From positions 19,941 through 83,940 of the forward strand of contig JAXDBC010000076.1 in NCBI GenBank assembly GCA_034679225.1: 64,000 nt of DNA. The letters are read 5' to 3'. The DNA comes from Bacteroidales bacterium (GTDB lineage Bacteria > Bacteroidota > Bacteroidia > Bacteroidales > VadinHA17). Made by a program: the position numbers and the translations under genes. Shown here piece by piece: positions 513-63,989 of the stretch. The first letter of the stretch is position 1; each line of letters starts with the position of its first letter. The notes beneath the pieces were generated by a model. The model made no database searches, was not told where the DNA came from, and was given only the letters and a program-made list of their open reading frames with translations.

Positions 513-560
513 GTCTTGCGGTCTTGCGGTCTTGCGGTCTTGCGGTCTTGCGGTCTTGCA
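513..560. repeat. Tandem octamer array, 6 units of GTCTTGCR
   Basis: Read directly: GTCTTGCG x5 then GTCTTGCA. It starts 4 nt after the fcl stop codon. Confidence 0.95.
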
Positions 561-605
561 AGTTGTGCGCTCGTGGAAGTTGTGAGGTTGCAGTCCATCA
601 ACCAT

Positions 606-965
606 TTATTTGCGGGGTTTGAGGTATTTCATGAGAACGCTGATGCTATTGATCAGGTTTTGGCATTTTTCTCTTCGTAAAAGAGCTGTCTCAGAGATAA
701 CATAGGATTGGTCCTCTGCGATATAATACATGTTCTTGACTTCACCAGAAGATCCCTTGGAAATATTTAGAAAATTACGGAATTCAGCATCACTATTTCT
801 GCAAAAACCTTCAGAAATATTGTTCATTATAGAAATCCCAGCACTTATAACCTGATTCCTAAAAGCAAAATCTTCACAATTTCTAAAATCAGTATAAATC
901 AGATTAACCAACTCCCTGGACATCTTCCAGATATCCAAGTCTTCAAAATTTTTTATTGTTGCCAT
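606..965 (-). CDS. Four-helix-bundle protein, 23S rRNA intervening-sequence / Avd-like family
   Basis: MATIKNFEDLDIWKMSRELV...ISEGFCRNSDAEFRNFLNISKGSSGEVKN is the typical signature of this family. The ATG at 965 is preferred over the upstream ATG at 989. Confidence 0.85.
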   Translation of the reverse strand: MATIKNFEDLDIWKMSRELVNLIYTDFRNCEDFAFRNQVISAGISIMNNISEGFCRNSDAEFRNFLNISKGSSGEVKNMYYIAEDQSYVISETALLRREKCQNLINSISVLMKYLKPRK

Positions 966-1045
966 TTTGCAGCTTTTAATGTAAGACATATTTATCCACC
1001 ACTAAAATAGCAATTATTCACCACAATTCTTCAGGATTTTCTGTC

Positions 1046-1176
1046 CGCACGACCGCACGACCGCAGGACTGCAGGACTGCAAGACTGCAAGACTGCAGGA
1101 CCGCAGGACCGCAAGACCGCAGGACTGCAAGACAACGACCGAAGGGAGTAAGACCGCGACCGAAGGGAGCCAGACC
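1046..1176. repeat. Tandem octamer array, 11 units of YGCAVGAC, followed by 2 copies of a ~20-nt unit CGACCGAAGGGAGnnAGACC
   Basis: Read directly. The units run CGCACGAC x2, CGCAGGAC, TGCAGGAC, TGCAAGAC x2, TGCAGGAC, CGCAGGAC, CGCAAGAC, CGCAGGAC, TGCAAGAC. This is the reverse complement orientation of the 513-560 array. Confidence 0.95.
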
Positions 1177-1177
1177 A

Positions 1178-1726
1178 TTACAGCTTTCTGAGAAAGGTCA
1201 TCGGTATGTTGATTATAACGTTTTGATCAAGCCGGTCAATGCGGACTACCACCCTGCTGTGCTTGCCAATCTTGATCAGTTCGCCGGTAAGTCCGATGAG
1301 TGATCCCCGAACCACCTCCACGTTGTCGCCCGGATCGAATTTTTCTGAGCTGACCTCTATTTCAGCATCGCTGTCAATTAGAAGACGCAGGTTGTCAATC
1401 TGTTTTTCCGGGATCGGAGCCGGCTGACCTTCAAATGTAACGAAACGTACTACGCCCGGAGCCTGGTATACTTTCAGGAATTCCAGGGGGGTAACTTTTA
1501 CGAATATATAGGACGAAAGAAGAGGGACTTCAACCAATTTTTTCCTGTCGCTCCAGATCCGGTAAGTCTTCTGTAGGGGAAGGAATACATTCACTCCCAC
1601 CTCCAACAGTCTGTCGCGGACCTGTTTCTCGGCTCTCGGATTGGTATAAACAGCAAACCATTTAGGTTCATGTTGTTTGAGGAAATGGTTTTTCGTAACA
1701 GTATTTCCGTTCTTTTTAGAGTCCAT
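1178..1726 (-). CDS. UpxY-family NusG-like transcription antiterminator
   Basis: KWFAVYTNPRAEKQV... forms an NGN domain, with a C-terminal KOW-like GDNVEVVRGSLIGLTGELIKI. The ATG at 1726 is preferred; the longer ORF starts on GTG at 1798. Confidence 0.85.
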   Translation of the reverse strand: MDSKKNGNTVTKNHFLKQHEPKWFAVYTNPRAEKQVRDRLLEVGVNVFLPLQKTYRIWSDRKKLVEVPLLSSYIFVKVTPLEFLKVYQAPGVVRFVTFEGQPAPIPEKQIDNLRLLIDSDAEIEVSSEKFDPGDNVEVVRGSLIGLTGELIKIGKHSRVVVRIDRLDQNVIINIPMTFLRKL

Positions 1727-1817
1727 GTCTGTTGCAAAAAAACCGCCCTTGTTCAGGACGGCTATCAAGTTTTTGTATTTCTTGTTTCTTCCGTGCACCG
1801 CTTACCGCGCACGGTTC

Positions 1818-2195
1818 TTATTTCTGTTTCATCTTTGCTTCCATCGACAGGGTGGCATGAGGTACAGCCCTCAGTCTTTCCTTTGAGATAAGCTTGCCGG
1901 TTTCACGGCAGACACCGTAGGTCTTGTTCTCAATCCTGATCAGAGCAGCCTGCAGGTGCTGGATGAATTTCAGCTGACGCTGGGCAAGCCTGCCGGCTTC
2001 TTCCTTGCTGAGCGTGGTGGCTCCTTCCTCAAGCACCTTGAAAGTGGGGGAAGTATCCATGGTATCGTTGCTCTCTTCGTGTGTAATACTTGATTTAAGA
2101 ATATCGTAATCTTTCTTGGCTTTATCAAGCTTTGCCAGGATGATCTGCCTGAATTCATCAAGTTCCTCATCCGTATATCTCGTCTTCACAGCCAT
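1818..2195 (-). CDS. TraR/DksA-family C4 zinc-finger protein
   Basis: It has a coiled-coil N-terminus and C-terminal ...IENKTYGVCRETGKLISKERLRAVPHATLSMEAK. It sits in the position after ileS that is typical in Bacteroidota. Confidence 0.8.
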   Translation of the reverse strand: MAVKTRYTDEELDEFRQIILAKLDKAKKDYDILKSSITHEESNDTMDTSPTFKVLEEGATTLSKEEAGRLAQRQLKFIQHLQAALIRIENKTYGVCRETGKLISKERLRAVPHATLSMEAKMKQK

Positions 2196-2303
2196 GGCAG
2201 TAAGTGTTTTGTTTATGGCGCAAAGGTACTTTTTTTAACGGAATAAAAAAATCATATTAGTCGTTCATTTTGAAGAAGGTAATTTAAGATGAAGAAGAGA
2301 TGT

Positions 2304-5300
2304 TCAACCATTCTTGATCACGGAAATCCTTATATTCATATCGTCTATCTCCACCTCCCGTACATTGCCCCTGGAGAAGTCGCTTACAACAGCCACCTTA
2401 GTGGCGAGCGTTTGCGATCCGATATAGTCTGCATGACGGTTCACTGCTTTGCTGATAAGATCATGATTCTCTATAAGGACGGTAATCTTGTCGGTGACAT
2501 CAAAACCGCTTTCCTTGCGTATGTTCTGGATCCGGTTGACAAACTCGCGCGCAATGCCTTCGTAACGCAATTCATCGGTAACGGTGACGTCGAGAGCAAC
2601 GGTAAGTTTGCCTTCGTTTGCAACCTGCCAACCGGGGATATCCTCTGAAATGATCTCAACATCGTCCCTGGTGAGAATGACTTCTTTACCTCCGATCAGA
2701 AGCGTATGACTGCCGGTCGTCTCAAGCGATGCAATATCCTGGCGCGTCATTGAAGCGATGGCTTTGCTGATGTCCTTCATCATCTTGCCGTACCTCGGAC
2801 CGAGTGTCCTGAAATCGGGTTTCACCTTTTTCACCAGAATGGACGAGGTATCGTCGATATACTCAACATCTTTCACGTTGACCTCGGCAAGTATCAGATC
2901 CTTCACAGCCTCGAACTTCTCCCTGAAATCTTTCTCGGTAAGGGGAACAATTATTCTGGCCAGGGGTTGGCGAACCTTTATGCTTACCTTTCGCCTGAGA
3001 CCGAGTATCATTGATGAAATAGCCTGGGCTATCGACATTCTCTCCTCAAGATCGCTGTTTATAAGAGCTTCGTCATAAGCGGGGAAAGGAGCCAGGTGCA
3101 CCGAGTCCTCAACGGCTTTCCCGGTGGTTAAATTCAAATCGCGGAACAGTTGGTCCATGTAGAACGGAGCAATGGGTGCAGCAAGCCGGCTGACCGTTTC
3201 AAGACAGCTGTAGAGAGTCTGGTAGGCAGCTATCTTGTCGTTGTCATAGTCACCGCCCCAGAAACGCTTCCTGTTAAGGCGGACGTACCAGTTGCTCAGG
3301 TTCTCTGTGACAAAATCCTGAATTGCCCTTCCGGCACGGGTAAGATCATAATTCTCATAGCAATTCCCGACTTCTTTCACAAGTGAGTTCAGCAGGGATA
3401 TGATCCAGCGGTCGATCTCGGGCCTGGTTTCAATTGGTATCTCATCCTCGGCATGCCTGAAATTGTCGATATTGGCATAGAGCGCGAAGAAGGAATATGT
3501 GTTGTAAAGGGTTCCGAAGAACTTCCTTTTCACCTCATCGATCCCCGAAGCATCGAATTTCAGGTTGTCCCAGGGTTGGGCATTGGTGAGAAGATACCAT
3601 CTGAGGGGATCGGATCCGTATTCGTTGATAATTTCAAAAGGATCGGCGGCATTACCAAGACGTTTCGACATCTTGTTGCCGTTTTTGTCAAGAACCAGTC
3701 CGTTTGATATGATGTTTTTGAATGAAACCGAATCCGATATCATTGTGGCTATTGCATGGAGGGTGAAGAACCAGCCTCTTGTCTGGTCTACACCTTCTGC
3801 AATAAAATCGGCAGGGAACATCTCGCTGAAATTCTCCCTGTTCTCGAAGGGATAGTGAGCCTGGGCATAGGGCATCGCACCGGAGTCGAACCACACGTCG
3901 ATCAGGTCTGGCTCACGGAACATCTTCTTTCCCGTCGGGCTGACCAGAATGATCTCGTCGACGAAGGGCCTGTGAAGATCAAATTTCATGTAGTTCTCAG
4001 CTGAATTGTCGCCCTCGGTGAAAGCCCCGAGAGGGTTCTTGTCCATAAATCCGGCAGCAATTGATTTATCGATCTCAGCTTTCAGTTCGGCCGCGGAACC
4101 TATGCATATTTCTTCTGTTCTGTCCTCCGTGATCCATATAGGCAGCGGTGTGCCCCAGAACCTGGAGCGTGAAAGGTTCCAGTCGACCAGGTTCTCAAGC
4201 CATTTGCCAAAGCGGCCGCTGCCTGTCGACCGCGGATTCCAGTTAATGGTGTTGTTAAGCTCGATCAGTCTATCCCGGAAGCTGGTAGTCCGGATAAACC
4301 AGGCATTCAGCGGATAGTAAAGAACCGGTTTGTCGGTCCTCCAGCAATGCGGGTAGCTGTGGAGCTGCTTCTCTATTCTGAAAACCTTGCCCTGCTGTTT
4401 GAGGCTTACAGCAATGTCGATATCTAGAGTGTCGGCATCCTGATGAATGGTGTCGTCATACTCATTCTTGACAGGTCTTCCCTCAAATCCCGTGTAGGAA
4501 GCGGTGTTAACCCTTTCCCTCACAAACTGTATGTCGAGATCCCTGATGGGAACCATATAACCTTTCTTGTCGACCATCGGACCCATGGTGCCGTCTTTTC
4601 TCTTCAGGATCATCCCGGGGATGCCGTTTTCCTTGCCTGCCCGGTAGTCGTCGGCTCCAAAGGTGGGAGCTATGTGAACAATGCCCGTACCATCCTCGGT
4701 TGTTACGAAATCGCCGATTATCACCCTGAAGGCGCCCGCGTCGGGTTTCACCCAGTCGATAAGCTGTTCGTAGTCTGTTCCCTCAAGAGAACTTCCCGGA
4801 AATTCATCCAGCACCCTGAAAGGAATCTTTTTGTCACCCTGTTTGTATTCGGAAAAATCCAGGGCCTTGTTCTCCGCGGGGAACATCGAATTTAAAAGGT
4901 CTTTTGCAATGATGACCGTTATCGGGGTTCCCGAATAAGGATTGAAACTGCGTACCCTGACATAGATAATGTCCTTACCTACTGCCAGTGCAGTGTTTGA
5001 AGGAAGTGTCCACGGGGTGGTTGTCCAGGCCATAATATGGACATCGGCGGTGTCGGTGTTCGTGTAAAGGAATTCCGATTTTTCATTTCTTATTACCCTG
5101 AACTGGGCGATACAAGTGGTATCCCTTACATCCCTGTAACAGCCCGGGAGGTTAAGCTCATGGGAACTCAGTCCGGTGCCGGCTGCAGGTGAGTACGGCT
5201 GAATGGTGTATCCCTGGTAGAGAACCCCTTTGTCGTAAAGCTGCTTAAGGAGCCACCAGAGGGTTTCAATATAGCGGTTGTCGTAAGTTATGTACGGATC

Positions 5301-5741
5301 ATCCATGTTTACCCAGTAACCCATCTTGCGGGTCAGTTCTTCCCACGTGTCGGTGTATTTCATCACATCGATCTTGCAGGCCTTGTTAAAGTCCTCGATG
5401 GATATCTTCGCACCGATATCTTCCTTCGTGATGCCAAGAGCCTTTTCCACACCCAGTTCGACGGGAAGACCGTGTGTATCCCATCCTGCCTTGCGTTTCA
5501 CCTCGTAGCCGCACTGAGCCTTGAAGCGGCAGATCGCATCCTTTATTGAGCGTGAGAGAACATGATGGATCCCCGGCATGCCGTTAGCCGAAGGAGGGCC
5601 CTCGTAGAACACGAATTCGCCTTTACCGTTAAGCTGACGCACACTCCTGCGGAATGTGTCATTGTCATCCCATACCTTCAGAATGTCCCTGTTTACCTGC
5701 GAGAGGTCCAGATTCTTATATTCCGGAAACCGTTTCCCCAT
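2304..5741 (-). CDS. ileS: Isoleucine--tRNA ligase
   Basis: 1145 aa. Class I signatures are PSANGMPGIHHVLSR (HIGH-type) and NKMSKRLGN (KMSKS), with a long editing-domain insertion. Confidence 0.97.
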   Translation of the reverse strand: MGKRFPEYKNLDLSQVNRDILKVWDDNDTFRRSVRQLNGKGEFVFYEGPPSANGMPGIHHVLSRSIKDAICRFKAQCGYEVKRKAGWDTHGLPVELGVEKALGITKEDIGAKISIEDFNKACKIDVMKYTDTWEELTRKMGYWVNMDDPYITYDNRYIETLWWLLKQLYDKGVLYQGYTIQPYSPAAGTGLSSHELNLPGCYRDVRDTTCIAQFRVIRNEKSEFLYTNTDTADVHIMAWTTTPWTLPSNTALAVGKDIIYVRVRSFNPYSGTPITVIIAKDLLNSMFPAENKALDFSEYKQGDKKIPFRVLDEFPGSSLEGTDYEQLIDWVKPDAGAFRVIIGDFVTTEDGTGIVHIAPTFGADDYRAGKENGIPGMILKRKDGTMGPMVDKKGYMVPIRDLDIQFVRERVNTASYTGFEGRPVKNEYDDTIHQDADTLDIDIAVSLKQQGKVFRIEKQLHSYPHCWRTDKPVLYYPLNAWFIRTTSFRDRLIELNNTINWNPRSTGSGRFGKWLENLVDWNLSRSRFWGTPLPIWITEDRTEEICIGSAAELKAEIDKSIAAGFMDKNPLGAFTEGDNSAENYMKFDLHRPFVDEIILVSPTGKKMFREPDLIDVWFDSGAMPYAQAHYPFENRENFSEMFPADFIAEGVDQTRGWFFTLHAIATMISDSVSFKNIISNGLVLDKNGNKMSKRLGNAADPFEIINEYGSDPLRWYLLTNAQPWDNLKFDASGIDEVKRKFFGTLYNTYSFFALYANIDNFRHAEDEIPIETRPEIDRWIISLLNSLVKEVGNCYENYDLTRAGRAIQDFVTENLSNWYVRLNRKRFWGGDYDNDKIAAYQTLYSCLETVSRLAAPIAPFYMDQLFRDLNLTTGKAVEDSVHLAPFPAYDEALINSDLEERMSIAQAISSMILGLRRKVSIKVRQPLARIIVPLTEKDFREKFEAVKDLILAEVNVKDVEYIDDTSSILVKKVKPDFRTLGPRYGKMMKDISKAIASMTRQDIASLETTGSHTLLIGGKEVILTRDDVEIISEDIPGWQVANEGKLTVALDVTVTDELRYEGIAREFVNRIQNIRKESGFDVTDKITVLIENHDLISKAVNRHADYIGSQTLATKVAVVSDFSRGNVREVEIDDMNIRISVIKNG

Positions 5742-5786
5742 CGGATCAATAAGTTAATGTTCCAAAACCGTTTTGAAAAAATCGCA

Positions 5787-5794
5787 CAAAGATA
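5787..5794 (-). promoter_or_regulatory. Candidate Bacteroidota -7 promoter box (TATCTTTG) for ileS
   Basis: The minus strand reads TATCTTTG, matching TAnnTTTG. A CTTG lies 20 nt upstream, and the box is 46 nt upstream of the ileS ATG. Confidence 0.4.
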
Positions 5795-5832
5795 GGAAAA
5801 AGGTGGAAAGGATACAAGATGTGAAGAAGATG

Positions 5833-6014
5833 AATGGGAGAATGGGAGACGGAGAGACCGCAAGACTGCAAGACTGCAAGACTGCAAGACACACTGCAGG
5901 ACAAAACGAAGGTTGCATCGGATGAATCCCCTCCTCGGAGGGGTGGGGGTGGGTTCTTGCACAGAGCACAGGGCAAAAGAACGGCATGCGGCTCGCGGCG
6001 TGCGGTAAGCGGCG
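5833..6014. repeat. Mosaic intergenic repeat element between divergent ileS and the rhodanese gene
   Basis: In order: AATGGGAG x2, ACGGAGAG, octamers CGCAAGAC/TGCAAGAC x4 plus TGCAGGAC, the conserved module GTTGCATCGGATGAATCCCCTCCTCGGAGGGGTGGGGGTGGGTTCTTG, CACAGAG/CACAGGG, and GAACGGCATGCGGCTCGCGGCGTGCGGTAAGCGGCG (GCGGYnn 7-nt periodicity). Confidence 0.95.
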
Positions 6015-6097
6015 AATTAACAGGCATTTTTGCCTTGTGAGAAATGTAAATTATAATAAAAGAAGAAAATCCTTTTCTTTGTATAAAAACAGATAGA

Positions 6098-6511
6098 ATG
6101 AGGCTCTGGGTGCTTGTTATAGTTTTGTTTATAAACCTTTTCCCGGCCGCGGGACAAGTGACCGATTCACTGAAATACATTTCCCTCGATCCTTATTATT
6201 TTCATTTACAGTATCTTAAAGAAGATTCTGCAATTCTGATAGATGTTAGACTGCCCTTCGAATTCAGGGGCAGGATAATTAAAAATGCAGTCAATATTCC
6301 CTCCTCAAGGGAGATGAAGAGGCTGACCGATACAATCACAAAGGATCGTCCTCTTTTGCTTTACTGCACCACGGACGACAGAAGCCGCAAGGCCGCGGAA
6401 CAGTTGTACGACCAGGGCTTCCGTAAACTTTATAATCTTGAGGGTGGTATCGTGGCATGGAGGAAGGAGAATATGCCGGTGACGAGGTGGAAGAAGAGAC
6501 GGAGGGACTAA
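6098..6511 (+). CDS. Rhodanese-like domain protein with signal peptide
   Basis: The N-terminus is hydrophobic (MRLWVLVIVLFINLFPAAGQ). The rhodanese active-site loop context is LLLYCTTDDRSRKAAEQL. Confidence 0.75.
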   Translation: MRLWVLVIVLFINLFPAAGQVTDSLKYISLDPYYFHLQYLKEDSAILIDVRLPFEFRGRIIKNAVNIPSSREMKRLTDTITKDRPLLLYCTTDDRSRKAAEQLYDQGFRKLYNLEGGIVAWRKENMPVTRWKKRRRD

Positions 6512-6520
6512 GGGACGATG

Positions 6521-6575
6521 GGGGAATGGGAGAAGAGGGGAATGGGAGAAGAGGAGACTTAGAGACTAGGGACGG
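6521..6575. repeat. 16-nt tandem duplication GGGGAATGGGAGAAGA x2 plus GAGACT/GGGAC tail
   Basis: Read directly after the rhodanese stop codon. It shares the AATGGGAG unit seen at 5833-5848 and, inverted, at about 11533-11545. Confidence 0.9.
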
Positions 6576-6621
6576 CTTGAAATAATTGAATACCTTTGTA
6601 AATAAATATTCAGACATAGAT

Positions 6622-7251
6622 ATGTTTTCAGGAATAGTGGAAGAAGCTGCGCCGGTCGTCAGTCTCGAGAAGGAGAAAGACAATCTGCACATTACGATGC
6701 GCTGCTCATTTGCCGATGAGCTCCGGATAGACCAGAGCATTTCGCATAACGGTGTTTGCCTTACGGTGGTAAGGAAAGACAAGGACACCTACACAGTTAC
6801 TGCCATAAAGGAGACGCTTGAGAAATCAAATCTCGGGCTTTTGAAACCGGGCGACAAGGTGAACCTCGAGCGAAGCACCAGGCTTGATGGCCGTCTCGAC
6901 GGACATATGGTACAGGGACATGTCGACCAGACTGCTGTCTGCACCGATGTCTCCGAAAGCGGCGGAAGCTGGTACTACACCTTTGAATACGAGCCCGCCA
7001 GGGAGGATTACATCACCGTCGAGAAAGGATCGGTGTCAGTTAACGGAGTAAGCCTCACCGTAGTCAATTCACAAGCAAAATCCTTCCAGGTCGCGATCAT
7101 TCCCTTCACCTGGGAAGTGACCAATTTTCATCAGATAAAAAAGGGTACGGTGGTCAATCTGGAATTTGATATACTGGGGAAATATATTGCTAAAATTGTA
7201 CGACAGATATTTGAGGCGCAGGACACAGGGCGCAAGACGCAGGGTGAATGA
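6622..7251 (+). CDS. ribE: Riboflavin synthase
   Basis: MFSGIVEE... plus duplicated lumazine-binding repeats (GVCLTVV / GVSLTVV). The ATG at 6622 is preferred; the longer ORF starts on TTG at 6586. Confidence 0.92.
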   Translation: MFSGIVEEAAPVVSLEKEKDNLHITMRCSFADELRIDQSISHNGVCLTVVRKDKDTYTVTAIKETLEKSNLGLLKPGDKVNLERSTRLDGRLDGHMVQGHVDQTAVCTDVSESGGSWYYTFEYEPAREDYITVEKGSVSVNGVSLTVVNSQAKSFQVAIIPFTWEVTNFHQIKKGTVVNLEFDILGKYIAKIVRQIFEAQDTGRKTQGE

Positions 7252-7275
7252 CGCTTTTCCATCCTGCGCCTTGCG
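7217..7275. terminator. Repeat-derived hairpin between convergent ribE and the PNPOx-like gene
   Basis: CGCAAGACGCAGG (7231-7243) is complementary to CCTGCGCCTTGCG (7263-7275) with one mismatch and a 19-nt loop. It is built from CGCAGGAC/CGCAAGAC octamers. There is no clean U-run. Confidence 0.4.
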
Positions 7276-7701
7276 TCATTTACTATTCTCCCATATCAAT
7301 TTCCTCCCAAATCCCAGCCTGTTATCCGTCATTTTAATATAGCTCAGCTTAACTATCCACGGACGCGTATCCATAAGCATCGCGACCGGGAAACGACGGA
7401 GGTAGGCATTACGGGCTGAAGAGGCCAGTTCGCCTTCAGGTTCGGAAACGATTCCCTGGAACTGAATGCCTCTTATCTTGCCGATTACATTGGTTTCAAG
7501 GACTACCGATCCGGCGACCTGTTTATTGATAAGGAATTCCTTTCCGTGTCGTGTATCGGGATCGGTGGTGAAGACCAGGGCGTTTTCTTCCTCGATGTAT
7601 ACATAAAAACAATTTGCGCACCATGGTCCGGCATCAGTCGATGTAGCTATGGTCAGGACATGGTGCTTCCTGAAGAACTTTTTTATCCTTTCGTCAATCA
7701 T
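7276..7701 (-). CDS. Pyridoxamine 5'-phosphate oxidase-like FMN-binding split-barrel protein (YhbP-like)
   Basis: MIDERIKKFFRKHHVLTIATS...CANCFYVY...ALVFTTDPDTRHGKE is a typical PNPOx-like pattern. The ATG at 7701 overlaps the ubiX stop by 8 nt. Confidence 0.75.
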   Translation of the reverse strand: MIDERIKKFFRKHHVLTIATSTDAGPWCANCFYVYIEEENALVFTTDPDTRHGKEFLINKQVAGSVVLETNVIGKIRGIQFQGIVSEPEGELASSARNAYLRRFPVAMLMDTRPWIVKLSYIKMTDNRLGFGRKLIWENSK

Positions 7702-8269: not shown

Positions 8270-8361
8270 ATACAATTAACAGTCAGGAATCAAAATTAGT
8301 ATTATACCGGCATATATGGATGCCGTGTTTAAGCTTTTCCGGGAAAGGACGTTTTTTTTGC

Positions 8362-8369: not shown

Positions 8370-8375
8370 TGTACG

Positions 8376-11353: not shown

Positions 11354-11719
11354 GTCCTTCGGTCTTGCAGTCTTGCAGTCTTGCGGTCTTGCAGTCTTGC
11401 GGTCCTGCGGTCTTGCGGTCCTGCGGTCTCTTCCTATGTATTTAGCTATCAGAAATGAGACCCGGAATATGTTATAACAATGTTATAACAGATCGGTATG
11501 CGCTCTAAGTCAAAACCCACCCCCTAACCCCCCATTCCCTTGTCTCCCCGTCTCCCCGTCTCTTCGTCTTTCGCCGCGTGCTGCACGCCGCTAGCCGCAT
11601 GCCGTTCTTCCCCCTGTGCTTTACCCCCATCCCGTCCCGATAGCTATCGGGAGCTTTCGGGATGGGGAGTAAAACTTCTGGGAGTAAAACTTCTGGGAGT
11701 AAAACTTTGGGAGTAAAAC
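11354..11719. repeat. Large mosaic intergenic repeat element (inverted relative to the 63589-63989 copy)
   Basis: In order:
- 9 octamers GTCYTGCR (11354-11425)
- anchor GTCTCTTCCTATGTATTTAGCTATCAG (11426-11452)
- 2x the palindrome GTTATAAC (11471-78, 11482-89)
- AACCCACCCCC
- CCCGTCTC x2
- the inverted GAACGGCATGCGGC module
- a nested perfect hairpin (11625-11667)
- a 15-mer GGGAGTAAAACTTCT x3.7 (11665-11719). Confidence 0.95.
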
Positions 11720-11818
11720 AAAAAGGAGATAAACCATCTTTCGCGAGTTCTGAAAGTTTTCTGCCAAGGATTAAAATTTCGTAATTTTAGGCTTTGATTT
11801 AATCTCAATATACTCCTT

Positions 11819-19753: not shown

Positions 19754-19836
19754 CTGACAGCTAAATACATAGGAAGAGACCGCAGGACCGCAGGACCGCA
19801 AGACTGCAAGACCGCAGGACCGCAGGACCGCAAAGT
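19754..19836. repeat. Anchor module plus octamer array
   Basis: CTGACAGCTAAATACATAGGAAGAGAC (19754-19780) is followed by CGCAGGAC x2, CGCAAGAC, TGCAAGAC, CGCAGGAC x2, CGCAAAGT. Confidence 0.95.
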
Positions 19837-30644: not shown

Positions 30645-30684
30645 CGCACGACTGCACGACTGCACGACCGCACGACCGCACGAC
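30645..30684. repeat. Tandem octamer array, 5 units YGCACGAC
   Basis: CGCACGAC, TGCACGAC x2, CGCACGAC x2, read directly 22 nt after the stop codon. Confidence 0.95.
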
Positions 30685-48004: not shown

Positions 48005-48222
48005 GACAGGGCACAGGGCGCAGGGCACAGGGCACAGGGCACAGGGCACAGGGCACAGGGCGCAGGGCACAGGGCACAGGGCACAGAGCACAGGGACTAA
48101 GAGACAGTACGACTGCAAGACGCAGTACAGGACGACGCGAAGGTTGTTTCGAATGGATCCCCTCCACTGGAGGGGTGGGGGTGGGTTCTGGTAGAGCGAG
48201 AGTGAGGAAGAAAAGCACAGGG
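48005..48222. repeat. Heptamer array (13 x CRCAGGG) plus mosaic modules
   Basis: 48005-48095 holds 13 phased 7-mers. These are followed by degenerate octamers (GACTGCAAGACGCAGTACAGGAC), the module GGTTGTTTCGAATGGATCCCCTCCACTGGAGGGGTGGGGGTGGGTTCTGG, GTAGAGCGAGAGTGAGGAAG, and a terminal CACAGGG. Confidence 0.95.
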
Positions 48223-48362
48223 CGAAGTGATTGGTCATGTAAGTCTCTTACAATGAGGCTTTAGCTTTCTTAGACTTTTAGCCTTTAACATCGTGCCGCG
48301 TACCGTTCTTCTCATTCTTACAAGGACTAAAATCAAAAATTAATTGCATATTCAAAAAACCT

Positions 48363-56267: not shown

Positions 56268-56310
56268 GTGATGATTCTTGTTCAGCAAAAATAGGCTTTT
56301 TATTTTTTAT

Positions 56311-56396: not shown

Positions 56397-56483
56397 ACAC
56401 ACCGGGGCAGGCCGGCACATAATTTTGCCGGCCTCATTTGCTATGAATTCCTTTGATGCACAAAACGGTAAAATTAACTGACC

Positions 56484-57611: not shown

Positions 57612-57638
57612 GACCGCCTGGGGGAGCAGGGCTTTTAA

Positions 57639-57735
57639 GTCTTGCTCCCTTCGGTCGCTGTCTTGCGGTCTTGCAGTCTTGCGGTCCCTGACTGCGAACT
57701 TTGAACCGTTTGCCGCTTGCCGCGCGCCGTTTTAA
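57639..57735. repeat. Mosaic repeat: inverted CGACCGAAGGGAG module, GTCTTGCR octamers, GC-rich GCCGCTTGCCGCGCGCCG module
   Basis: GTCTTGCT-CCCTTCGGTCG-CT-GTCTTGCG-GTCTTGCA-GTCTTGCG-GTCCCTGA..., i.e. the reverse complement of the arrangement at 1118-1160. Confidence 0.95.
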
Positions 57736-57828
57736 CTTTTTAACCCGCATTCTGCAACATTATTCCCCATATACAATAATCCCTCACATTTTTTTGTTAT
57801 CTTAATAGCTTATTAAACAAAGATAAAA

Positions 57829-57996
57829 TTGGAAAAGCCGCTCAGATATATCAGAGTCAATGCCCGTACGGTGGTCGGGATAAGGAAGGATATATCCGAT
57901 GATCAGGTGAGGAAGAAATTCAATGACAACCTCAGGCTATCTCCATATTTCAATCCTAAAAAATTCTTCGTGATCTCGGAAAGCCGGTGGATCTGA
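57829..57996 (+). CDS. Possible small protein (55 aa, TTG start), below the ORF-track length cutoff
   Basis: Manual translation gives (M)EKPLRYIRVNARTVVGIRKDISDDQVRKKFNDNLRLSPYFNPKKFFVISESRWI*. The composition is protein-like, but there is no in-frame ATG and no recognised family. Confidence 0.25.
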   Translation: MEKPLRYIRVNARTVVGIRKDISDDQVRKKFNDNLRLSPYFNPKKFFVISESRWI

Positions 57997-58150
57997 AACC
58001 CGGTTATTGTTCCTGATATCCTGCATCATTGCTTAATAAGGTATTATTTAAAACTAAACGCTTGTTTTGTCACAATACAGACGGCTGTTTTATTTTTATC
58101 TATATTTGAAATCCACGGATATTCAATGGGACTAAAAAATACTGAGTAAA

Positions 58151-58699
58151 ATGGCAATAATAATAATCGCGATCGTGGCAATTTGCGGAGTGTTTTTACT
58201 CGTCGTGTACAACCGGCTTGTAAGACTGGTAAATTATGTAAGGGAGGCATGGAGCGGCATCGACGTGCAGCTTAAGAAACGTCATGACCTGATACCCCTA
58301 CTGGTGACAACTGTAAAGTCATATGCATCTCACGAGCGGAACCTGCTGGAAGCCATTACCAAACTCAGGACCAAGGGGATGTCAGCTACATCGCTCAGGG
58401 AAACCGAGACTGCTGAAATAGAACTGTCGAAGGCACTGGGTAAGCTCTTCGTGGTGGTGGAGAACTATCCCGATCTCAAGGCCAGTCAGAATTTTCTGGA
58501 ACTGCAGAAAGATATATCAAAGGTGGAAAATGACCTCCAAAAGGCCCGCCGTTACTACAATGGAACGGTACGTAACTACAACATACTGATCGAGCAGTTC
58601 CCGTCGAGTCTGGTGGCAAAACTGGCAGGCCACAGTCAAAAGGAATTCTTTGATATAGGAAATGAATCGGAGAGGGCAGTACCGGACGTCAACATGTAA
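58151..58699 (+). CDS. lemA: LemA-family membrane protein
   Basis: N-terminal TM plus YNRLVRL...W..IDVQLKRRHDLIP...ENYPDLKA...RRYYNGTVRNYN signature. Confidence 0.92.
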   Translation: MAIIIIAIVAICGVFLLVVYNRLVRLVNYVREAWSGIDVQLKKRHDLIPLLVTTVKSYASHERNLLEAITKLRTKGMSATSLRETETAEIELSKALGKLFVVVENYPDLKASQNFLELQKDISKVENDLQKARRYYNGTVRNYNILIEQFPSSLVAKLAGHSQKEFFDIGNESERAVPDVNM

Positions 58700-58710
58700 T
58701 ATTCTGAAAG

Positions 58711-60402
58711 ATGAAGAAATTAATTGCATCTCTGTTTCTGGTTTTTATTGGACTTTCGGCAAATTCGCAGGAAAAGATCCTTTCCTATGACATTATCGCG
58801 GCTATTGAAAAGGATGGCACTCTGCTGGTTCAGGAACAGATAAGGGTGGCTGCCGAAGGAAATGCAATAAAAAGAGGCATCTACAGGACTTTCCCCACCA
58901 GATACAAAGATAAACTGGGCAACCGCTACAAGGTCGGCTTCGAGGTGACGGAGGTTCTGAAAAACGGAGTTCCCGAGCCCTGGTTCACCAGGAAAGAATC
59001 GAACGGAGTTATTGTTTATATAGGTGACGAAAATGTTATACTTGAACCGGGAGTATACAATTACAGCCTTTCTTTCAGGACAAATCGCCAGCTGGGCTTT
59101 TTCGACGGCTATGACGAGCTTTACTACAATGCCATTGGCGGTGACTGGGCTTTCCCGATAGAAACAGCTACCGTTACTCTTATACTCCCTGAAGGAGCGA
59201 AGGTTTTAAATAAGGCTGCCTATTCAGGCTATGCCGGATCAACAGACTGCGACTGCCTGCTCACTGCAGAAAGGAATATGGTAAGCCTTGCCATGACCAG
59301 AACTCTGCAGCCCGGGGAACAGCTTACCATCGCGGTCGGATGGCCGGTAGGACATGTGATCAGACCTTCGGCTATCACTAAGATAGCCTGGTTTCTGAAA
59401 GATAACCTTCATATCCTTATTGCCCTGGCCGGAATTGCCGGAGTCATAGTGCTCTACTTAAGGCGATGGAAGTCGGTTGGAAGAGATCCTGCCAAAGGAA
59501 CCATTATACCCTTGTTTGATCCGCCCGAAGGATTCAGTCCGGCAGATACCGGTTACCTGGTCGCCATGGGGATGAAGGAAGAAGTGATGACAGCGGCGCT
59601 TGTTAACATGGCCGTGAAAGGCTGCCTGAAAATCGTAAATACAAAAAGGAAATATTCCCTTGAACTTGTTCCCGGTAATACTGCTGAACTCACTCCCGAG
59701 GAAAAGGTCCTTGCATCGGTTCTTTTTTCCTCATCTCAGGAGCTGGCCCTGGACAATGAAAACTATCAGTTGTTGCTGAGCGCGAGAATGAAGGCGGAAA
59801 AAATCCTTAAAGCGAAAATGATACCGGAATATTTCAATCTCAACGCCAGACATCTTATGCCGGGAGTTCTTCTTTCGATAGCCCTGGTTGTTCTTGGCTT
59901 TGCCATATCTCCCTCTCCGCTCGTCCCTGTGATACTGATCATTCTTCTTACCGGACTGGTGATTCTTTTCTCATGGCTTATCAAAGCTCCCACAGCCCGC
60001 GGAAGGGCTTTGATGGATGAAGCGGAAGGTTTCAAAATGTACCTTTCAGTTGCAGAAAAGGACAGGCTCAACCTTTTGCATGAACCGGAGCTTACAGTTG
60101 AACGCTTTGAAAGCCTTCTTCCTTATGCCATAGCTCTTGGAGTCGAGAATGAGTGGGGCAACAGGTTTGAGAATGCACTTAAGCGTTCGATGCAGGAAAC
60201 AAAAGACTATAATCCTGCATGGTATGTTGGAACAATACCGGGAACCACGGTATTTTCGCCTTCCCATTTTAGCTCAACGATGGGAAAAAGCTTTTCATCG
60301 GCCATATCGTCGGCATCCACCCCTCCCGGATCATCATCAGGCAGTGGCGGCGGAGGAATCGCGGGTGGCGGCGGTGGCGGTGGCGGCGGCGGTGGCTGGT
60401 AA
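58711..60402 (+). CDS. DUF2207 domain membrane protein with C-terminal poly-Gly tail
   Basis: Signal peptide, extracellular DUF2207 domain (YDIIAAIEKDGTL...), 3 or more TMs, ending GSSSGSGGGGIAGGGGGGGGGGGW. It follows lemA with an 11-nt gap. Confidence 0.85.
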   Translation: MKKLIASLFLVFIGLSANSQEKILSYDIIAAIEKDGTLLVQEQIRVAAEGNAIKRGIYRTFPTRYKDKLGNRYKVGFEVTEVLKNGVPEPWFTRKESNGVIVYIGDENVILEPGVYNYSLSFRTNRQLGFFDGYDELYYNAIGGDWAFPIETATVTLILPEGAKVLNKAAYSGYAGSTDCDCLLTAERNMVSLAMTRTLQPGEQLTIAVGWPVGHVIRPSAITKIAWFLKDNLHILIALAGIAGVIVLYLRRWKSVGRDPAKGTIIPLFDPPEGFSPADTGYLVAMGMKEEVMTAALVNMAVKGCLKIVNTKRKYSLELVPGNTAELTPEEKVLASVLFSSSQELALDNENYQLLLSARMKAEKILKAKMIPEYFNLNARHLMPGVLLSIALVVLGFAISPSPLVPVILIILLTGLVILFSWLIKAPTARGRALMDEAEGFKMYLSVAEKDRLNLLHEPELTVERFESLLPYAIALGVENEWGNRFENALKRSMQETKDYNPAWYVGTIPGTTVFSPSHFSSTMGKSFSSAISSASTPPGSSSGSGGGGIAGGGGGGGGGGGW

Positions 60403-60607
60403 GACATTGCAGAAGTTGATCTCATCCTTCGAAATCTAATGTTTCCGGAATGTACGAAGCCTGTCATTAAACTTTAGTTTCCGGCTTCAGATTGATAGTG
60501 GTGCAAGACAGTGCCTTTCTCCACTTTTGTTTTATTTCTCCTGAAAATTTGATTTATCGGAAGTCATAAAAAAAGCATAATATTGCAGCTTCATAAAACA
60601 GAACATC

Positions 60608-61162
60608 ATGACAGAACAAATAAGGATGATAGGGGCAAGGATACGGGAGCTCCGCGATATTTCCGGGATTACTACAGGAGACCTTGCACAGAAGCTCGGA
60701 CTTCCTGAGGATCTTTATGTCAAATATGAAAGCGGCGAATCTGACATTCCGGTTGGAGTGCTTTTCGAAATATCGGAGATGTTCAACGTAGAATTGTCGG
60801 TATTGCTCGGGGGTGATGGCCCTAAACTTCATATTTATGGAATAGTGAGGAATGGAAAAGGACTGAAGCTTGAACGCCGGCAGCAGTACAAATATGAGAG
60901 CCTGGCCTTTAACTTCATCAATAAAAAAGCTGAGGTTTTCATGGTAACCATCGATCCGAAGCCTGAAGATTCACTTCTTGATTTCAACTCCCATCCCGGA
61001 CAGGAATTCAACTATGTTATCAAAGGATCGATGATGACAGTTATTGACGGCTACGAAATCATACTGAACGAGGGTGACTCGATATATTTCGACTCGGGAT
61101 ACAATCACGCGATGAAAGCCCTCAACAATGAGCAGGTGAAATTCCTGGCAATTATTTTATAG
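60608..61162 (+). CDS. XRE-family HTH regulator with C-terminal cupin domain
   Basis: [25 protein letters not shown] forms the HTH. The cupin region is [17 protein letters not shown]...[14 protein letters not shown]. Confidence 0.88.
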
Positions 61163-61181
61163 GACAATACCGATATTGACA

Positions 61182-62837
61182 ATGCTTCTTGAAAAATACC
61201 TGAAACAGATTGATTTTAAATCATACGAAGAGTTTAAAACCGGATTTGAAATAAGAATCCCCGAGAGTTTCAATTTCGCATACGATGTTGTTGACGAAAT
61301 AGCCCGGAACACACCGGAAAAGACCGCGATGGTGTGGTGTGACGACAAAGGCAATGAAGCTGTTTTTACATTTGGACAGATGAAGTATTACAGCGACAAG
61401 GCTGCAAACTTCTTCAGGACGAAAGGAATCCGAAAGGGTGACCGTGTCATGTTGATTCTGAAAAGACACTATACATTCTGGTTCTGTACACTGGGACTTA
61501 ACAAGATAGGAGCTGTTATAATTCCCGCGACCCATCTCCTTACCGCCAAAGACATTGTTTACAGGAACAATGCCGCCGGCATCAGGATGATTGTCTGCGT
61601 GCAAGATCCGGAGGTAATACGGCATATTGAAGATTCCCAAAGTCAGTCCCCCACACTTGAGTTCATGGTATTGGCAGGCAGCGAACGGGAAGGATGGATC
61701 AATTTTTCAAAGGAAATGGACGAGAGTCCGGAGGTATTTACAAGACCGGGGCCGGATGAAGCGCCGGGGAATGATGACACCATGCTTCTTTATTTCACTT
61801 CGGGCACTACCGGAATGCCCAAGATGGTAACTCACGATTACACCTATCCACTCGGGCATATACTGACGGCGAAGTATTGGCAGTGCGTTCAGGATAACGG
61901 GCTGCATTTCACCATTGCCGATACGGGATGGGCCAAATCGGCCTGGGGCAAGATCTATGGTCAGTGGATATCAGGGAGCGCGGTAATGACATACGATTAT
62001 GACAGGTTTGTCCCGAAAGACATCCTTGGAGTGATTGAAAAATACAAGGTAACAACCTTATGCGCCCCTCCTACAATTTACAGGTTCCTGATAAAGGAAG
62101 ACCTTGAAACCTTTGATCTTGGCAGCCTGAAGAACTGCGTTGTTGCCGGTGAGCCGCTTAATCCTGAGGTATATAAATTCTTCCTTGAGAAAACCGGACT
62201 GAAGCTTATGGAAGGTTATGGCCAGACGGAATGCACCATTGCCCTGGCTACCTTTCCCTGGATGAAACCCAAACCCGGATCAATGGGAAAGCCGTCGCCG
62301 GGTTATGATATTGAAATTGTCGATGAATCGGGCTATCCCTGCGAGGTTGGTTATGAAGGAGAAATAGTTATTCATACTGACAGGAGAAAGCCGGTCGGTA
62401 TGTTCAAGGGCTATTACATGGATGAAGATATGACAAGAAATGTCTGGTCGGACGATGTTTACAGGACAGGCGACATGGCCTGGCGCGATGAGGATGGATA
62501 TTTCTGGTTTGTAGGCAGGGCAGATGATATCATCAAGAGTTCGGGTTACAGGATAGGTCCCTTTGAAGTCGAAAGCGCCCTTATAGAGCATCCGGCCGTT
62601 CTTGAATGTGCTGTGACTGCCGTTCCCGATCCCGACAGGGGACAGATTGTAAAAGCCACAATAGTTCTTTCAAGAAATTATAGCCCCGGAGATGAACTGG
62701 CCAGGCAACTGCAGGACCATGTCAAGAAAGTCACAGCTCCCTACAAGTACCCGAGAATTGTTGAGTTTGTTGACGAGCTGCCGAAAACAATAAGCGGAAA
62801 GATTAGAAGGGTCCAGATAAGGGAAAAGGATGGTTAA
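61182..62837 (+). CDS. AMP-forming acyl-CoA synthetase (medium-chain / ACSM-like)
   Basis: [50 protein letters not shown]. The ATG at 61182 is preferred; the longer ORF starts on TTG at 61176. Confidence 0.9.
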
Positions 62838-63007
62838 TCTGAAAATTTGAAAATCGCTCTAAAGTGACAATTTTCAATGATTAATATAATATTCCGCCTA
62901 AAAAATAACTGATAGGACAATTCCGTTTTATGAGTGAATTTGATACTTTTAAAAGTATCAAATCCCTTATGATATTCAATTATTATTAACCTCAAAACTC
63001 CAATACC

Positions 63008-63586
63008 ATGAGATCAAAAGCAGCGCTAATGATAAGCTTTTTCATGTTGTCAGCCATTGCCTTCTCGCAGACAGAAAAGGGGACTCTGATAGTTTCCGGT
63101 AACAACAGCCTTGAATTTACTCATACTGAGGGGAAACTTACAGATAAAGAGACTGGCTCATCTAGTCGTTCGAAAGTGAATACCTTAGAGTTCATGCCGG
63201 CTGTTGGTTATTTTGTCGCAGATAATTTTGCTGTTGCACTTTCAGTAGATTACATACGTTCCTCACAAAAAAATTACAAATCAAACCAGCTGTCATTTAT
63301 GCCGACCTTAATGTATTATTTTCCGGGTGAATCATCATTCAGGCCTAATGTCCAGGCTGGTTTCGGATATGCAGTATTAAAGGAAAAGTTCAACACGTAC
63401 AAAGAGTCGTTCTCCGGATATGCTTATGGCGCTGGTTTGGGCCTGGATTATTTCATTAGCGATAATATTGCGGTCGGTCTTGGAATACAATGGATAGGCA
63501 CAAAGATGACCTACTCGGAAGACAAGGATTTAAAAACTACTGCCAATGCTTTGGGATCGGTCATTGAATTCTCACTGTTCTTTTAA
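63008..63586 (+). CDS. Outer-membrane beta-barrel protein (small porin/OmpW-like)
   Basis: Signal peptide, alternating amphipathic beta-strands, and a C-terminal ...IEFSLFF aromatic terminus. Confidence 0.75.
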   Translation: MRSKAALMISFFMLSAIAFSQTEKGTLIVSGNNSLEFTHTEGKLTDKETGSSSRSKVNTLEFMPAVGYFVADNFAVALSVDYIRSSQKNYKSNQLSFMPTLMYYFPGESSFRPNVQAGFGYAVLKEKFNTYKESFSGYAYGAGLGLDYFISDNIAVGLGIQWIGTKMTYSEDKDLKTTANALGSVIEFSLFF

Positions 63587-63588
63587 AG

Positions 63589-63989
63589 CTCAGGGCATAA
63601 GGCACAGGGCACAGAGCACAGGGCACAGGGCTCAGGGCGCAGGGCACAGGGCGCAGTGACAGGTCGTGCAAGTCTTGCAGGTCATGCAAGTCTTGCAGGT
63701 CGTGCTAATTGTACAAGACCTGCAAGACAGCAAGACACACTGCAAGACAAAGCGAAAGTTGCATCGGATGGATCCCTTTCTCCGGAGTGGGGGTGGGTTC
63801 TTGTAGAGCGAGAGTGAGGGAGAGAAGCAAGCCTTTTAGATATTCGGAACCATGTTATAACATTGTTATAACGTGTTTCGGGCTTTATTTCTGACAGCTA
63901 AACACATAGGAAGAGACCGCAGGACAATGTATTATGTATTATGTATTATAGGCGATGTATTATAGGCGATGTATTATAGGCGATGTATA
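63589..63989. repeat. Large mosaic intergenic repeat element running to the window end
   Basis: In order:
- 11 heptamers CNCAGGG (63589-63658)
- an 18-mer CAGGTCRTGCAAGTCTTG x2.5
- a 12-bp perfect hairpin (63690-63701 / 63717-63728)
- CAAGAC units
- the GTTGCATCGGATGGATCC...GGGGGTGGGTTCTTG module
- GTAGAGCGAGAGTGAGGGAG
- 2x GTTATAAC (63854-61, 63865-72)
- the anchor CTGACAGCTAAACACATAGGAAGAGAC (63891-63917)
- one CGCAGGAC
- ATGTATT x3 and a 14-mer ATAGGCGATGTATT x3 (63927-63989). Confidence 0.95.

Follow-up and report, generated by a model that had tools for sequence, protein, structure and literature searches.

A 64,000-nt stretch of the genome of a Bacteroidales bacterium of the VadinHA17 lineage (contig JAXDBC010000076.1, positions 19,941 to 83,940), referred to here as the window, carries eleven intergenic loci built from 7- and 8-nt tandem arrays together with a set of conserved modules. 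These are probably copies of a dispersed, non-autonomous and non-coding composite repeat, which resizes by slippage, recombines between copies, and is tolerated, and possibly used, at the 3' ends of genes. The anatomy and dynamics of the repeat can be described with confidence, its spread and role with much less.

The proposed mechanism has a better and a less well-founded part. Arrays gain and lose whole 7- or 8-nt units, a change directly visible between strains, for which replication slippage would be the cause; homologous recombination, with arrays or modules of one copy or of separate copies as its substrates, would delete, insert, replace or rearrange whatever lies between them. More tentatively, copies may persist at gene 3' ends because insertions are tolerated there, and the hairpins of inverted arrays and the G-quadruplex motifs of G-rich arrays may help to end or insulate transcripts.

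Composite architecture and abundance

Arrays were called with Tandem Repeats Finder and modules were located by regular-expression scan. All eleven loci, and every module listed in an initial reading of the letters by themselves (the first-pass annotation), were found where that reading had placed them, and its central claim of a dense intergenic mosaic family of short arrays and conserved modules is supported both by the recurrence of the modules and by array counts: adjacent octamer pairs (GCAVGACYGCAVGAC) number 36 in the window and adjacent heptamer pairs 11, against 0.00 expected for each in 100 dinucleotide-preserving shuffles. The eleven loci sum to 1,680 bp, or 2.6% of the window, and make up about one-fifth of its intergenic DNA (7.8 kb on a simple map of open reading frames, ORFs). 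All lie outside long ORFs, and a coding role for the arrays is rejected on this anatomy; the exception is 7217-7275, which overlaps the last 35 nt of the riboflavin-synthase gene. This locus does share octamer- and heptamer-like words with the others, as first proposed, but it is a stable hairpin of constant length and a marginal member of the family at best.

The modules may be abbreviated as follows: H, a CRCAGGG array; J, GGCAGTGACAGGTC; O- and O+, the octamer array in reverse and forward orientation; T, CTCTTACAATGAGGC; B, a hairpin module whose end is GGGGGTGGGTT; C, GTAGAGCGAGAGTGAGG; P, a doublet of GTTATAAC; A, TTTCTGAYAGCTAAAYACATAGGAAGAGAC; Y, ATGTATT(ATAGGCG) arrays; Q, a CAATTAG array; D, GAACGGCATGCGGC..GCGGCGTGC; and E, CGACCGAAGGGAG. 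Non-array words recur at separate loci: CTGAYAGCTAAAYACATAGGAAGAGAC at 19754(+), 63891(+) and 11426(-); the GTTATAAC doublet at 11471/11482 and 63854/63865; GGGGGTGGGTTCT at 5945, 48177 and 63789; GTAGAGCGAGAGTGAGG at 48191 and 63803; GAACGGCATGCGGCTnGCGGCGTGC at 5979(+) and 11583(-); and CGACCGAAGGGAG at 1136(+), 1157(+) and 57645(-).

A full copy is about 0.6 kb long and has a largely fixed order: H, J, O-, T, B, C, P, A, O+, Y, Q, O+, E. Its two ends are unlike, H at one and O+E at the other, and many copies are single-armed. Strings read from the window, from strain contigs and from other sites include H J O- O+ C P A Y Q O+ E and H O- T B C P A O+ E, with D G P A O+ and H J O- T as further examples; most loci are sub-strings of the one order, in either orientation, which is broken at a minority, 5833 (N O+ B H D) and 48005 (H B C T). 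The most complete copy in the window, at 63589, runs past its end, and in contig L005 it goes on with CAATTAG arrays, O+ and E+ as far as the stop codon of the convergent gene. The occurrence of modules in both orientations was correctly noted at first, and "shuffled" is right in part, but the order is not freely shuffled: most loci fit a single collinear order and are better described as decayed or expanded copies of one composite template. An outward-facing terminus, (YGCANGAC)n-CGACCGAAGGGAG-CCAGRCC, recurs at several sites, and a metagenome search for the junction of E and O yielded 17 stretches, representing about eight sites.

No described family was found that accounts for these sequences. 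Rfam returned only a tRNA at gathering score, and the modules had no match there even at E<=1, so that no known non-coding RNA family is indicated; full-text literature searches did not find such repeats described for Bacteroidales, in keeping with the initial remark that none was known for Bacteroidota. A CRISPR array, already thought incompatible with so short a period, is rejected: the units are 7-8 nt and spacer-less, vs repeats of 23-47 nt with unique spacers, and the window has no cas genes.

Strain variation, gene turnover and distribution

Near-identical strains were compared through 36 contigs anchored in the flanking genes, which cover nine array-bearing intergenic regions (19754-19836 is not among them). 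Length varies in all nine, so that the array-length polymorphism for which a comparison of strains had been suggested is present throughout; about 20 array-free regions are constant within 3 bp, except two with separate small insertions. Between near-identical strains the small changes are whole 7- or 8-nt units, which would be the signature of replication slippage. At 30645 the array has 4, 5 or 8 units by strain, and the other ~460 bp of the intergenic region are almost constant, with a few single-base differences; the heptamer array downstream of the outer-membrane protein (OMP) gene also differs in copy number, and strain contig L155 is 62 bp longer at 48005, corresponding to about nine extra heptamers.

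The large changes are bounded by like repeats and include genes (the PF05635 gene, cysE-cysK and a 2.1-kb insert), as recombination between dispersed repeats would produce. Strain contigs L009 and L011 lack the PF05635 gene and retain no more than short O- and O+ arrays in its place. At 48005, cysE-cysK with an E-/O- block replaces the H-B-C-T block in seven strain contigs (2,443 vs 629 bp). Past the DUF6051 gene, the long form carries an extra 2.1 kb, with an ORF of 184 residues, between direct repeats of a J/O-/T block; the allele without this insert (L001) is a chimaera of both repeats. Short alleles of the OMP flank are without exactly the stretch between two direct O+ arrays, and in contig L047 a break in synteny coincides with arrays.

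Table 1. Repeat loci of the window and the enclosed PF05635 gene, with neighbouring genes and the lengths of the intergenic regions among strains. Array periods and spans are those of Tandem Repeats Finder (TRF); regex, regular-expression scan.
Position	Strand	Feature	Basis	Setting	Intergenic length by strain (bp)
513..560	-	Octamer array O-, six units GTCTTGCG	TRF, 100% matches; period 8, 513-559	Begins 3 nt past stop of epimerase-like gene; left arm around PF05635 gene	80, 96 or 104
606..989	-	PF05635 cargo gene ("23S rRNA intervening-sequence protein", Avd-like four-helix bundle)	Pfam label
1046..1176	+	11 units YGCAVGAC (O+), then two CGACCGAAGGGAG (E+)	TRF, regex; period 8, 1045-1133	Ends 1 nt short of stop codon of minus-strand NusG-like gene	159, 180 or 188
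5833..6014	+	Composite: AATGGGAG x2, four O+, B (GTTGCATCGGATGAATCC...GGGGGTGGGTTCT), two heptamers, GAACGGCATGCGGCTCGCGGCGTGC (D+)	Period 8, 5855-5890	Sole locus between divergent genes (ileS, rhodanese)	356, 386, 547 or 555
6521..6575	+	G-rich octamer array N+ (GGGAGAAT/GGGGAATG type)	TRF; period 8/16, 6518-6565; fits G-quadruplex motif	Begins 9 nt past rhodanese stop	102, 110 or 118, i.e. 8-nt steps (6512-6621)
7217..7275	.	Hairpin of octamer-/heptamer-like words	-29.9 kcal/mol, z -3.06	Between convergent ribE and PNPOx-like genes	Constant across 10 strain contigs
11354..11733	-	Reverse composite copy; + strand order O- x8, A-, P (GTTATAAC doublet), B2-, GTCTCCCC x2.6 (G-), D-, GGGAGTAAAACTTCT x3.7 (15-nt array)	TRF, regex; period 8, 11360-11429; period 15, 11665-11719	O- array begins 3 nt past dnaG stop	368, 468, 596, 620 or 626
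19754..19836	+	Module A (CTGACAGCTAAATACATAGGAAGAGAC), then six O+ octamers	Period 8, 19778-19832	26 nt past stop of penicillin-binding-protein gene
30645..30684	+	Five octamers YGCACGAC, isolated, without modules	Period 8, 30644-30685	21 nt past stop of DUF4251 gene	494, 501, 502 or 526
48005..48260	+	Composite: 13 H+ (CRCAGGG), degenerate octamers, B hairpin, GTAGAGCGAGAGTGAGG (C+), CTCTTACAATGAGGC (T+)	Period 7, 48006-48095 (12.9 copies)		629, 691 or 2,443
57625..57735	-	Terminus-type: hairpin (GGGGGAGCAGGGC UUUU AAGUCUUGCUCCC), CTCCCTTCGGTCG (E-), three O-, GC-rich tail	z -3.16; period 8, 57660-57686	Downstream of DUF6051 gene	539, 691, 697 or 2,689
63589..64000	+	Most complete copy: H+ x9, J, five 9-nt GTCNTGCAR (O-), four O+, B, C, P, A, then Y+ arrays (ATGTATT, ATGTATTATAGGCG)	TRF, regex; period 7, 63591-63656 (9.4 copies); period 14, 63941-63988	Begins 2 nt past OMP gene stop	~150, 195, 555 or 580 (gap between gene calls)

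Some further differences between strains may be recorded here. The cysE (hexapeptide transferase) and cysK (PALP) genes of the seven strain contigs (window 47787-48415 compared with L149 7558-10000) are absent from both the window and L155, so that near-identical strains differ in metabolic gene content. In L011 (2137-2364, compared with window 2196-2303), a 117-bp array-type block, made up of an E-like word and GTCNTGCAR 9-mers, lies against the ileS stop and is absent from the window; the ileS C-terminus there differs by one residue and no target-site duplication is visible. In L009 and L010 (~15000-19500), the 1,854-residue alpha-2-macroglobulin-like gene that follows the 11354 locus, downstream of dnaG, appears to be replaced or broken into small ORFs, possibly through a further large rearrangement that began at a repeat locus.

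Other short repeats are present as well. The window has 101 bp at 44228-44328 that L149 and L150 lack, an insertion in which a CCCCCGCTTGAGCGGGG hairpin comes after an inverted repeat (ACCCACATGTAT...AAATATGTGGGT). Some copies of module B (L002, L172, L179) contain in their loop a small hairpin of similar form, CCCCGCTCAAGCGGGG, and hairpins of this type may represent a second small element resembling the repetitive extragenic palindromic (REP) sequences. Upstream of the DUF4251 gene, at 29904-29964, a 22-nt unit (ACAAATTTTTACCTGAATATCG x2.8) is constant in length in nine strain contigs and aligns at 78-80% identity to L062 and L091, loci from two further species; the region may have a conserved regulatory role. 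A CACCAA hexamer array at 28810-28891 (13.7 copies, with a higher-level period of 30) is coding: it lies inside ORF 27795-29867, for a protein with a type IX secretion system (T9SS) tail, and the called product has 676, 686 or 690 residues by strain contig.

The gene content of the window is that of an ordinary chromosome (ileS, dnaG, ribE, a class A penicillin-binding protein, CorA, ispD, an ABC transporter and the T9SS-tailed protein). By exact-protein look-ups the window recurs in many independent assemblies, several labelled as anaerobic-digester metagenomes, and in NCBI metagenome-assembled genomes (MAGs); the nearest species representatives are titled "Bacteroidales bacterium". Genome-wide spread of the repeats is judged from the 64 kb and other contigs only. 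Within that scope they are not confined to one region, since modules occur at other genomic sites and octamer arrays in dozens of Bacteroidales MAG species, and the unique modules are restricted to the source species and its close relatives.

When one genome per species was scanned for runs of four GCAVGACN units, more than 115 stretches were recorded. The listing gives 80 of these, and 49 bear the name Bacteroidales, Bacteroidia, Bacteroidetes, Bacteroidota or Rikenella(ceae) in their titles, each an uncultured MAG from digesters, peat, fen, soil or springs; the other listed matches come from GC-rich phyla, mostly with G at unit position 1. Arrays of GGCA[AGC]GAC, often directly past a stop codon, are seen in Streptomyces, Gemmatimonadota, Acidobacteriota, Chloroflexota and Massilia (L018, L020, L027, L036, L040, L045, L056, L059 and others). 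Where other arrays neighbour the octamers in Bacteroidales loci, their period is 7, 8, 14 or 16 in 31 of 36 and their unit sequences are diverse. Period would then be the lineage-wide invariant, which fits the idea, published in PMC4692102 with a citation of Mrazek 2007, that the footprint of slippage favours heptamers.

Position is conserved too. Four loci syntenic with window 500-9600 have arrays in the matching intergenic positions at 67-78% nucleotide identity of the orthologous genes, and conservation of this kind is what the first pass had made a condition of its proposal. The O-/PF05635 gene/O+ layout is kept in L047, and in L095 O+ arrays precede copies of the gene (68-72% nucleotide identity); related species L050 has inverted octamer arrays upstream of the ileS promoter.

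Position, sequence constraint and competing explanations

Nine of the ten non-divergent loci of the window start within 27 nt of a stop codon, and elements are present in 4 of its 9 convergent, 6 of its 23 aligned and 1 of its 8 divergent intergenic regions. Statistics beyond the window rest on 50 Bacteroidales loci, in which arrays per kb of intergenic DNA number 2.0 in convergent, 1.2 in aligned and 0.53 in divergent regions; in aligned regions, the median array lies 51 nt from the upstream stop vs 104 nt from the next start. The E-/O- terminus begins 9-34 nt past a same-strand stop at five of eight distinct sites examined, behind five different genes. Where an array lies at most 150 nt upstream of a start, GCANGAC points towards the gene in 28 cases vs 10; arrays downstream of stop codons have no overall bias in orientation (31 vs 36).

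The octamer itself is tightly constrained. Positions 2-4 and 6-8 (GCA.GAC) are invariant in all 43 units from seven arrays; position 1 takes C or T and position 5 takes A, G or C, a freedom readable from the window units only, since the pattern used for the species scan fixes GCAVGAC. The 9-nt variant retains the GCANGAC core, and GAC is the best-kept part of the non-seed units in other species. Inverted array pairs have one polarity: all nine, two of them in the window and the others from seven MAG species, are arranged 5'-GTCNTGC...GCANGAC-3' with no case of the opposite order. Two of these pairs are orthologous, which makes eight independent cases. Taken together, the invariant positions and fixed arm polarity would point to a sequence-specific partner or mechanism.

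Structure is strong at some loci. The inverted arrays at 63655-63750 fold at -46.7 kcal/mol (z -6.7), and a hairpin just past the DUF6051 stop has z -3.2. Around the PF05635 ORF, the octamer arrays 513-560 and 1046-1133 are able to pair into a stem of about 45 bp (z -5.8 for the fold of the whole cassette). Four G-quadruplex motifs, defined at the level of sequence as at least four G3 tracts with loops of 1-7 nt, occur in the window, all within the loci, vs 0.46 expected; one is on the minus strand at 11516-11557, inside the 11354 locus. Eleven variants of module B form a hairpin, yet there are no compensatory changes, and single-sequence z values are -0.8 to -1.9, with one of +0.2; the module is rejected as a structured RNA. 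Terminator scans covered 1-20000 and 44001-64000 and suggest that most genes there end without a classic hairpin-plus-U terminator. The sole strong canonical terminator, at 47834-47874, lies outside the arrays and upstream of the 48005 copy; its stem is 19 bp long and flanked by T-runs on either side.

Several results weigh against the explanation by a tolerated, slipping and recombining repeat. As regards a role in termination, single-orientation arrays have no structure (z ~0 to +1; for 19754-19836, nothing beyond chance at z +1.0), no hairpin is followed by a U-run, much as the first-pass annotation had observed, and terminator-like sites are not enriched at arrays in the scanned regions; with the lone strong terminator outside the arrays, the loci are rejected as canonical intrinsic terminators. 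The 3'-end enrichment in the window alone is not significant (Fisher p = 0.41). As regards spread, no transposase, recombinase or cas gene was seen in the ~64-kb window or the fetched flanks, nor was there any target-site duplication at the filled-versus-empty sites of the PF05635, ileS-flank and OMP-flank polymorphisms; in the window, flanks, compared sites and viral contigs, no link of the spread to a transposase, to such duplications or to phage was found. The strain comparisons also use short-read metagenome assemblies, which are able to collapse repeats, a worry against which stands the recurrence of identical length variants in independent samples. The main unexplained result is that slippage and recombination do not account for the invariance of the octamer, the polarity of the arms and the orientation bias upstream of starts.

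One possibility, to be held tentatively, is that the loci are selected cis-acting elements: a protein-binding (or RNA) platform presenting GCA-N-GAC every 8-9 nt, with an array form (GCAAGACC)n as the putative protein target, or transcript punctuation (terminators, insulators or 3'-exonuclease barriers) of the type of the REP and bacterial interspersed mosaic elements (BIMEs) of Escherichia coli. A binding platform would make sense of six octamer positions held fixed while two vary freely, of the core kept in the 9-nt variant, and of the unit's persistence at orthologous loci whose flanking genes have diverged to 67-78% identity, but no candidate binding protein was identified, and copy number and even whole elements differ among near-identical strains without visible compensation. 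Punctuation is consistent with elements that abut stops, as the E- terminus does, and with strong hairpins and G-quadruplex motifs, and the repeats of Xanthomonas and Nostoc are transcribed and lie ~28 nt from the upstream ORF (PMC4692102); the hairpins here nevertheless lack a U-tract, terminator-like sites are not enriched and module B has no compensatory base changes. Orientation cuts both ways, GCANGAC pointing towards genes upstream of starts but being unbiased past stops.

An active or recent mobile system, either a foldback-type non-autonomous transposon or a site-specific cassette exchange with octamer arrays as its ends, serving as terminal inverted repeats built of sub-repeats, is unlikely. 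In its most explicit form, which we consider just as doubtful, an undescribed Bacteroidales system would have a protein that recognises GCA-N-GAC every 8-9 nt, with the DNA between the arms inserted, excised or inverted; candidate cargo would be the PF05635/Avd-like gene, module blocks and perhaps cysE-cysK. The invariant octamer positions could be the binding site of a transposase or recombinase, and all nine inverted pairs share their polarity, but neither type of gene was found in the ~64 kb and flanks and many arrays have a single orientation. Cargo does lie between inverted arms (the PF05635 gene; a block of modules of ~400 bp), the O-/cargo/O+ arrangement is conserved across species, and "empty" sites retain a short inverted pair; there are, however, neither target-site duplications nor clean junctions, and alleles with and without cargo differ in the ends of the flanking genes too. 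The recurrent outward-facing terminus and the strain-dependent 117-bp block beside the ileS stop would also suit mobility, but all the indels are explicable by homologous recombination between repeats. Viral contigs have no related elements: six with four-unit octamer arrays and 11 with the GTTATAAC doublet are all of unrelated context, and a phage or viral origin is rejected. So is the idea that the arrays generally have the PF05635 protein as their partner: among the fetched loci, an iterative search returned it at the orthologous locus and at L029 only.

It is very improbable that these are ordinary simple-sequence repeats (SSRs), born independently by slippage and sharing words through coincidence or mutational bias. 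Whole-unit polymorphism, the dominance of periods 7 and 8 regardless of unit sequence, the isolated module-less array at 30645 and the over-representation of heptamers known in many bacteria (PMC4692102) are all as such an origin would have them; it would not produce unique 13-30-nt modules that recur with arrays in conserved order at many loci, one octamer, its invariant positions unchanged, at seven loci of the 64 kb and with arrays in dozens of species, or inverted pairs of fixed polarity. SSRs serving phase variation (contingency loci), which would sit inside an ORF or between promoter elements of a surface or restriction gene and switch its expression, are rejected on anatomy, the arrays lying mostly 3' of housekeeping genes (dnaG, ribE, ileS, cysK and the penicillin-binding-protein gene); an effect of the arrays on promoters downstream may still be allowed for.

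Chimeric or mis-collapsed repeats from assembly or binning can be set aside almost completely: the source is very likely a metagenome assembly and arrays do sit at the extreme ends of a few contigs, but the loci with their flanking genes are present in dozens of independent metagenome assemblies (ENA, JGI, Logan), made with different assemblers, and in NCBI MAGs, and their length variants recur. The contigs that start or end inside octamer arrays are L034 (2-96), L106 (5-35), L123 (5-91) and L125 (a 640-bp contig), from which it follows that arrays break short-read assemblies and that longer arrays are probably under-represented in MAGs.

Related systems and significance

Heptamer arrays of cyanobacteria, the short tandemly repeated repetitive (STRR) sequences, were reportedly described by Mazel et al. 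in 1990; the E. coli REP/BIME mosaics are said to go back to Gilson et al. in 1991, and REPIN doublets to Bertels and Rainey in 2011. The first pass had named STRR and BIME/REP as the nearest analogues, a comparison that can be kept, but a closer one is with quadruplex-forming heptamer repeats, GGGAATC in Xanthomonas and GGGGAYT in Nostoc (Rehm et al. 2015, PMC4692102). These and STRR are the closest described kind: tandem 7-nt units with one G3 tract each, scattered over the genome, head-to-tail and spacer-less as here, almost exclusively non-coding, near the upstream stop, sparse between divergent genes, occasionally in inverted pairs, varying in length and sequence between related genomes, and with housekeeping neighbours, so not a case of classic phase variation. 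The differences are that the phylum is another; that the Bacteroidales unit is CRCAGGG rather than CCCCAGT (STRR), GGGAATC or GGGGAYT; that the commonest unit here is an octamer without a G-tract and with six invariant positions; and that the arrays form part of a composite element that also has unique modules. Array size here is 5-25 units (in few examples); Xanthomonas and Nostoc are reported to prefer four. Loci here coincide with gene presence or absence, whereas the Xanthomonas repeats are reported from regions of increased stability (PMC4692102).

In their mosaic structure and recombination, the loci parallel BIME/REP, and the NIMEs (neisserial intergenic mosaic elements) with minimal mobile elements, more closely. 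REP/BIME are likewise intergenic, usually past stops, and form mosaics of motifs in both orientations with hairpins from inverted pairs and strain-variable copy content. REP are, however, imperfect palindromes of ~35 nt, as opposed to non-palindromic tandem units of 7-8 nt; hairpins here arise from inverted arrays only, there is no sequence similarity, and no gene for the REP-associated tyrosine transposase (RAYT, a Y1 transposase) was seen in the window or fetched flanks. NIMEs, composed of dRS3 and RS and found with minimal mobile elements in Neisseria, also alternate a short constant repeat with many module families; their syntenic arrays differ in repeat number and length, they are proposed recombination substrates, and one site may hold different genes by strain (PMC1797815). 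Unlike the tandem octamer, dRS3 is a 20-bp inverted repeat (ATTCCCN8GGGAAT), not seen here; natural transformation and a phage recombinase acting on dRS3 are features of Neisseria but are not known here (PMC1797815), and NIMEs flank surface-antigen genes rather than housekeeping ones.

Foldback transposons of eukaryotes, such as the Drosophila FB elements, have long inverted arms of variable numbers of short sub-repeats, and 23S rRNA intervening sequences (IVS) occur in Leptospira and Coxiella. The loci resemble the former in having inverted arms of sub-repeats, cargo between the arms in some copies and a recombinogenic character, but foldback elements are eukaryotic, the arms here are much shorter and there is no evidence here of transposition. 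They resemble the latter, which may bear a PF05635 ORF (PMC10053308), in the enclosure of such a gene by inverted repeats able to form a long stem, but the neighbours of the cassette here are protein-coding genes, and no 23S rRNA helix surrounds it. BrickBuilt, a MITE (miniature inverted-repeat transposable element) found in Porphyromonas gingivalis, is, like these repeats, a dispersed non-coding Bacteroidales element with a spacer-less tandem-repeat body, leader and tail modules with small inverted ends, exclusively intergenic location and strain-variable copy number (PMC4596501). It differs in its 23-nt unit, its single repeat type and its 19 copies per genome, against 7-8-nt units of many types at about 11 loci in 64 kb, and has no sequence similarity. 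Some copies are bounded by inverted octamer arrays of a single polarity, as MITE ends might be, but the target-site duplication that defines a MITE is missing at the compared sites. Only the generic properties of long SSRs are shared in full; the loci lack what defines REP/BIME, NIME, MITE (target-site duplication) and CRISPR and are not members of those families.

Intergenic 7-8-nt arrays and mosaic repeats are thus already known, and what is new is the constrained octamer, the fixed polarity of the arms, the collinear composite and the coincidence with gene turnover. At about one-fifth of the intergenic DNA in 64 kb, and with octamer arrays in dozens of uncultured Bacteroidales species, the repeats are a major unannotated feature of these genomes. 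By breaking short-read assemblies, supplying strain markers with 8-nt steps and coinciding with sites of gene turnover, the arrays are relevant to MAG quality, strain tracking and pangenomes. They also provide a well-resolved case for the question of why some lineages, including those with STRR and the Xanthomonas and Nostoc repeats, fill the 3' flanks of their genes with 7-8-nt arrays, and the GCA-N-GAC core and fixed arm polarity, unreported for those systems, offer a handle for finding a binding protein or mechanism.

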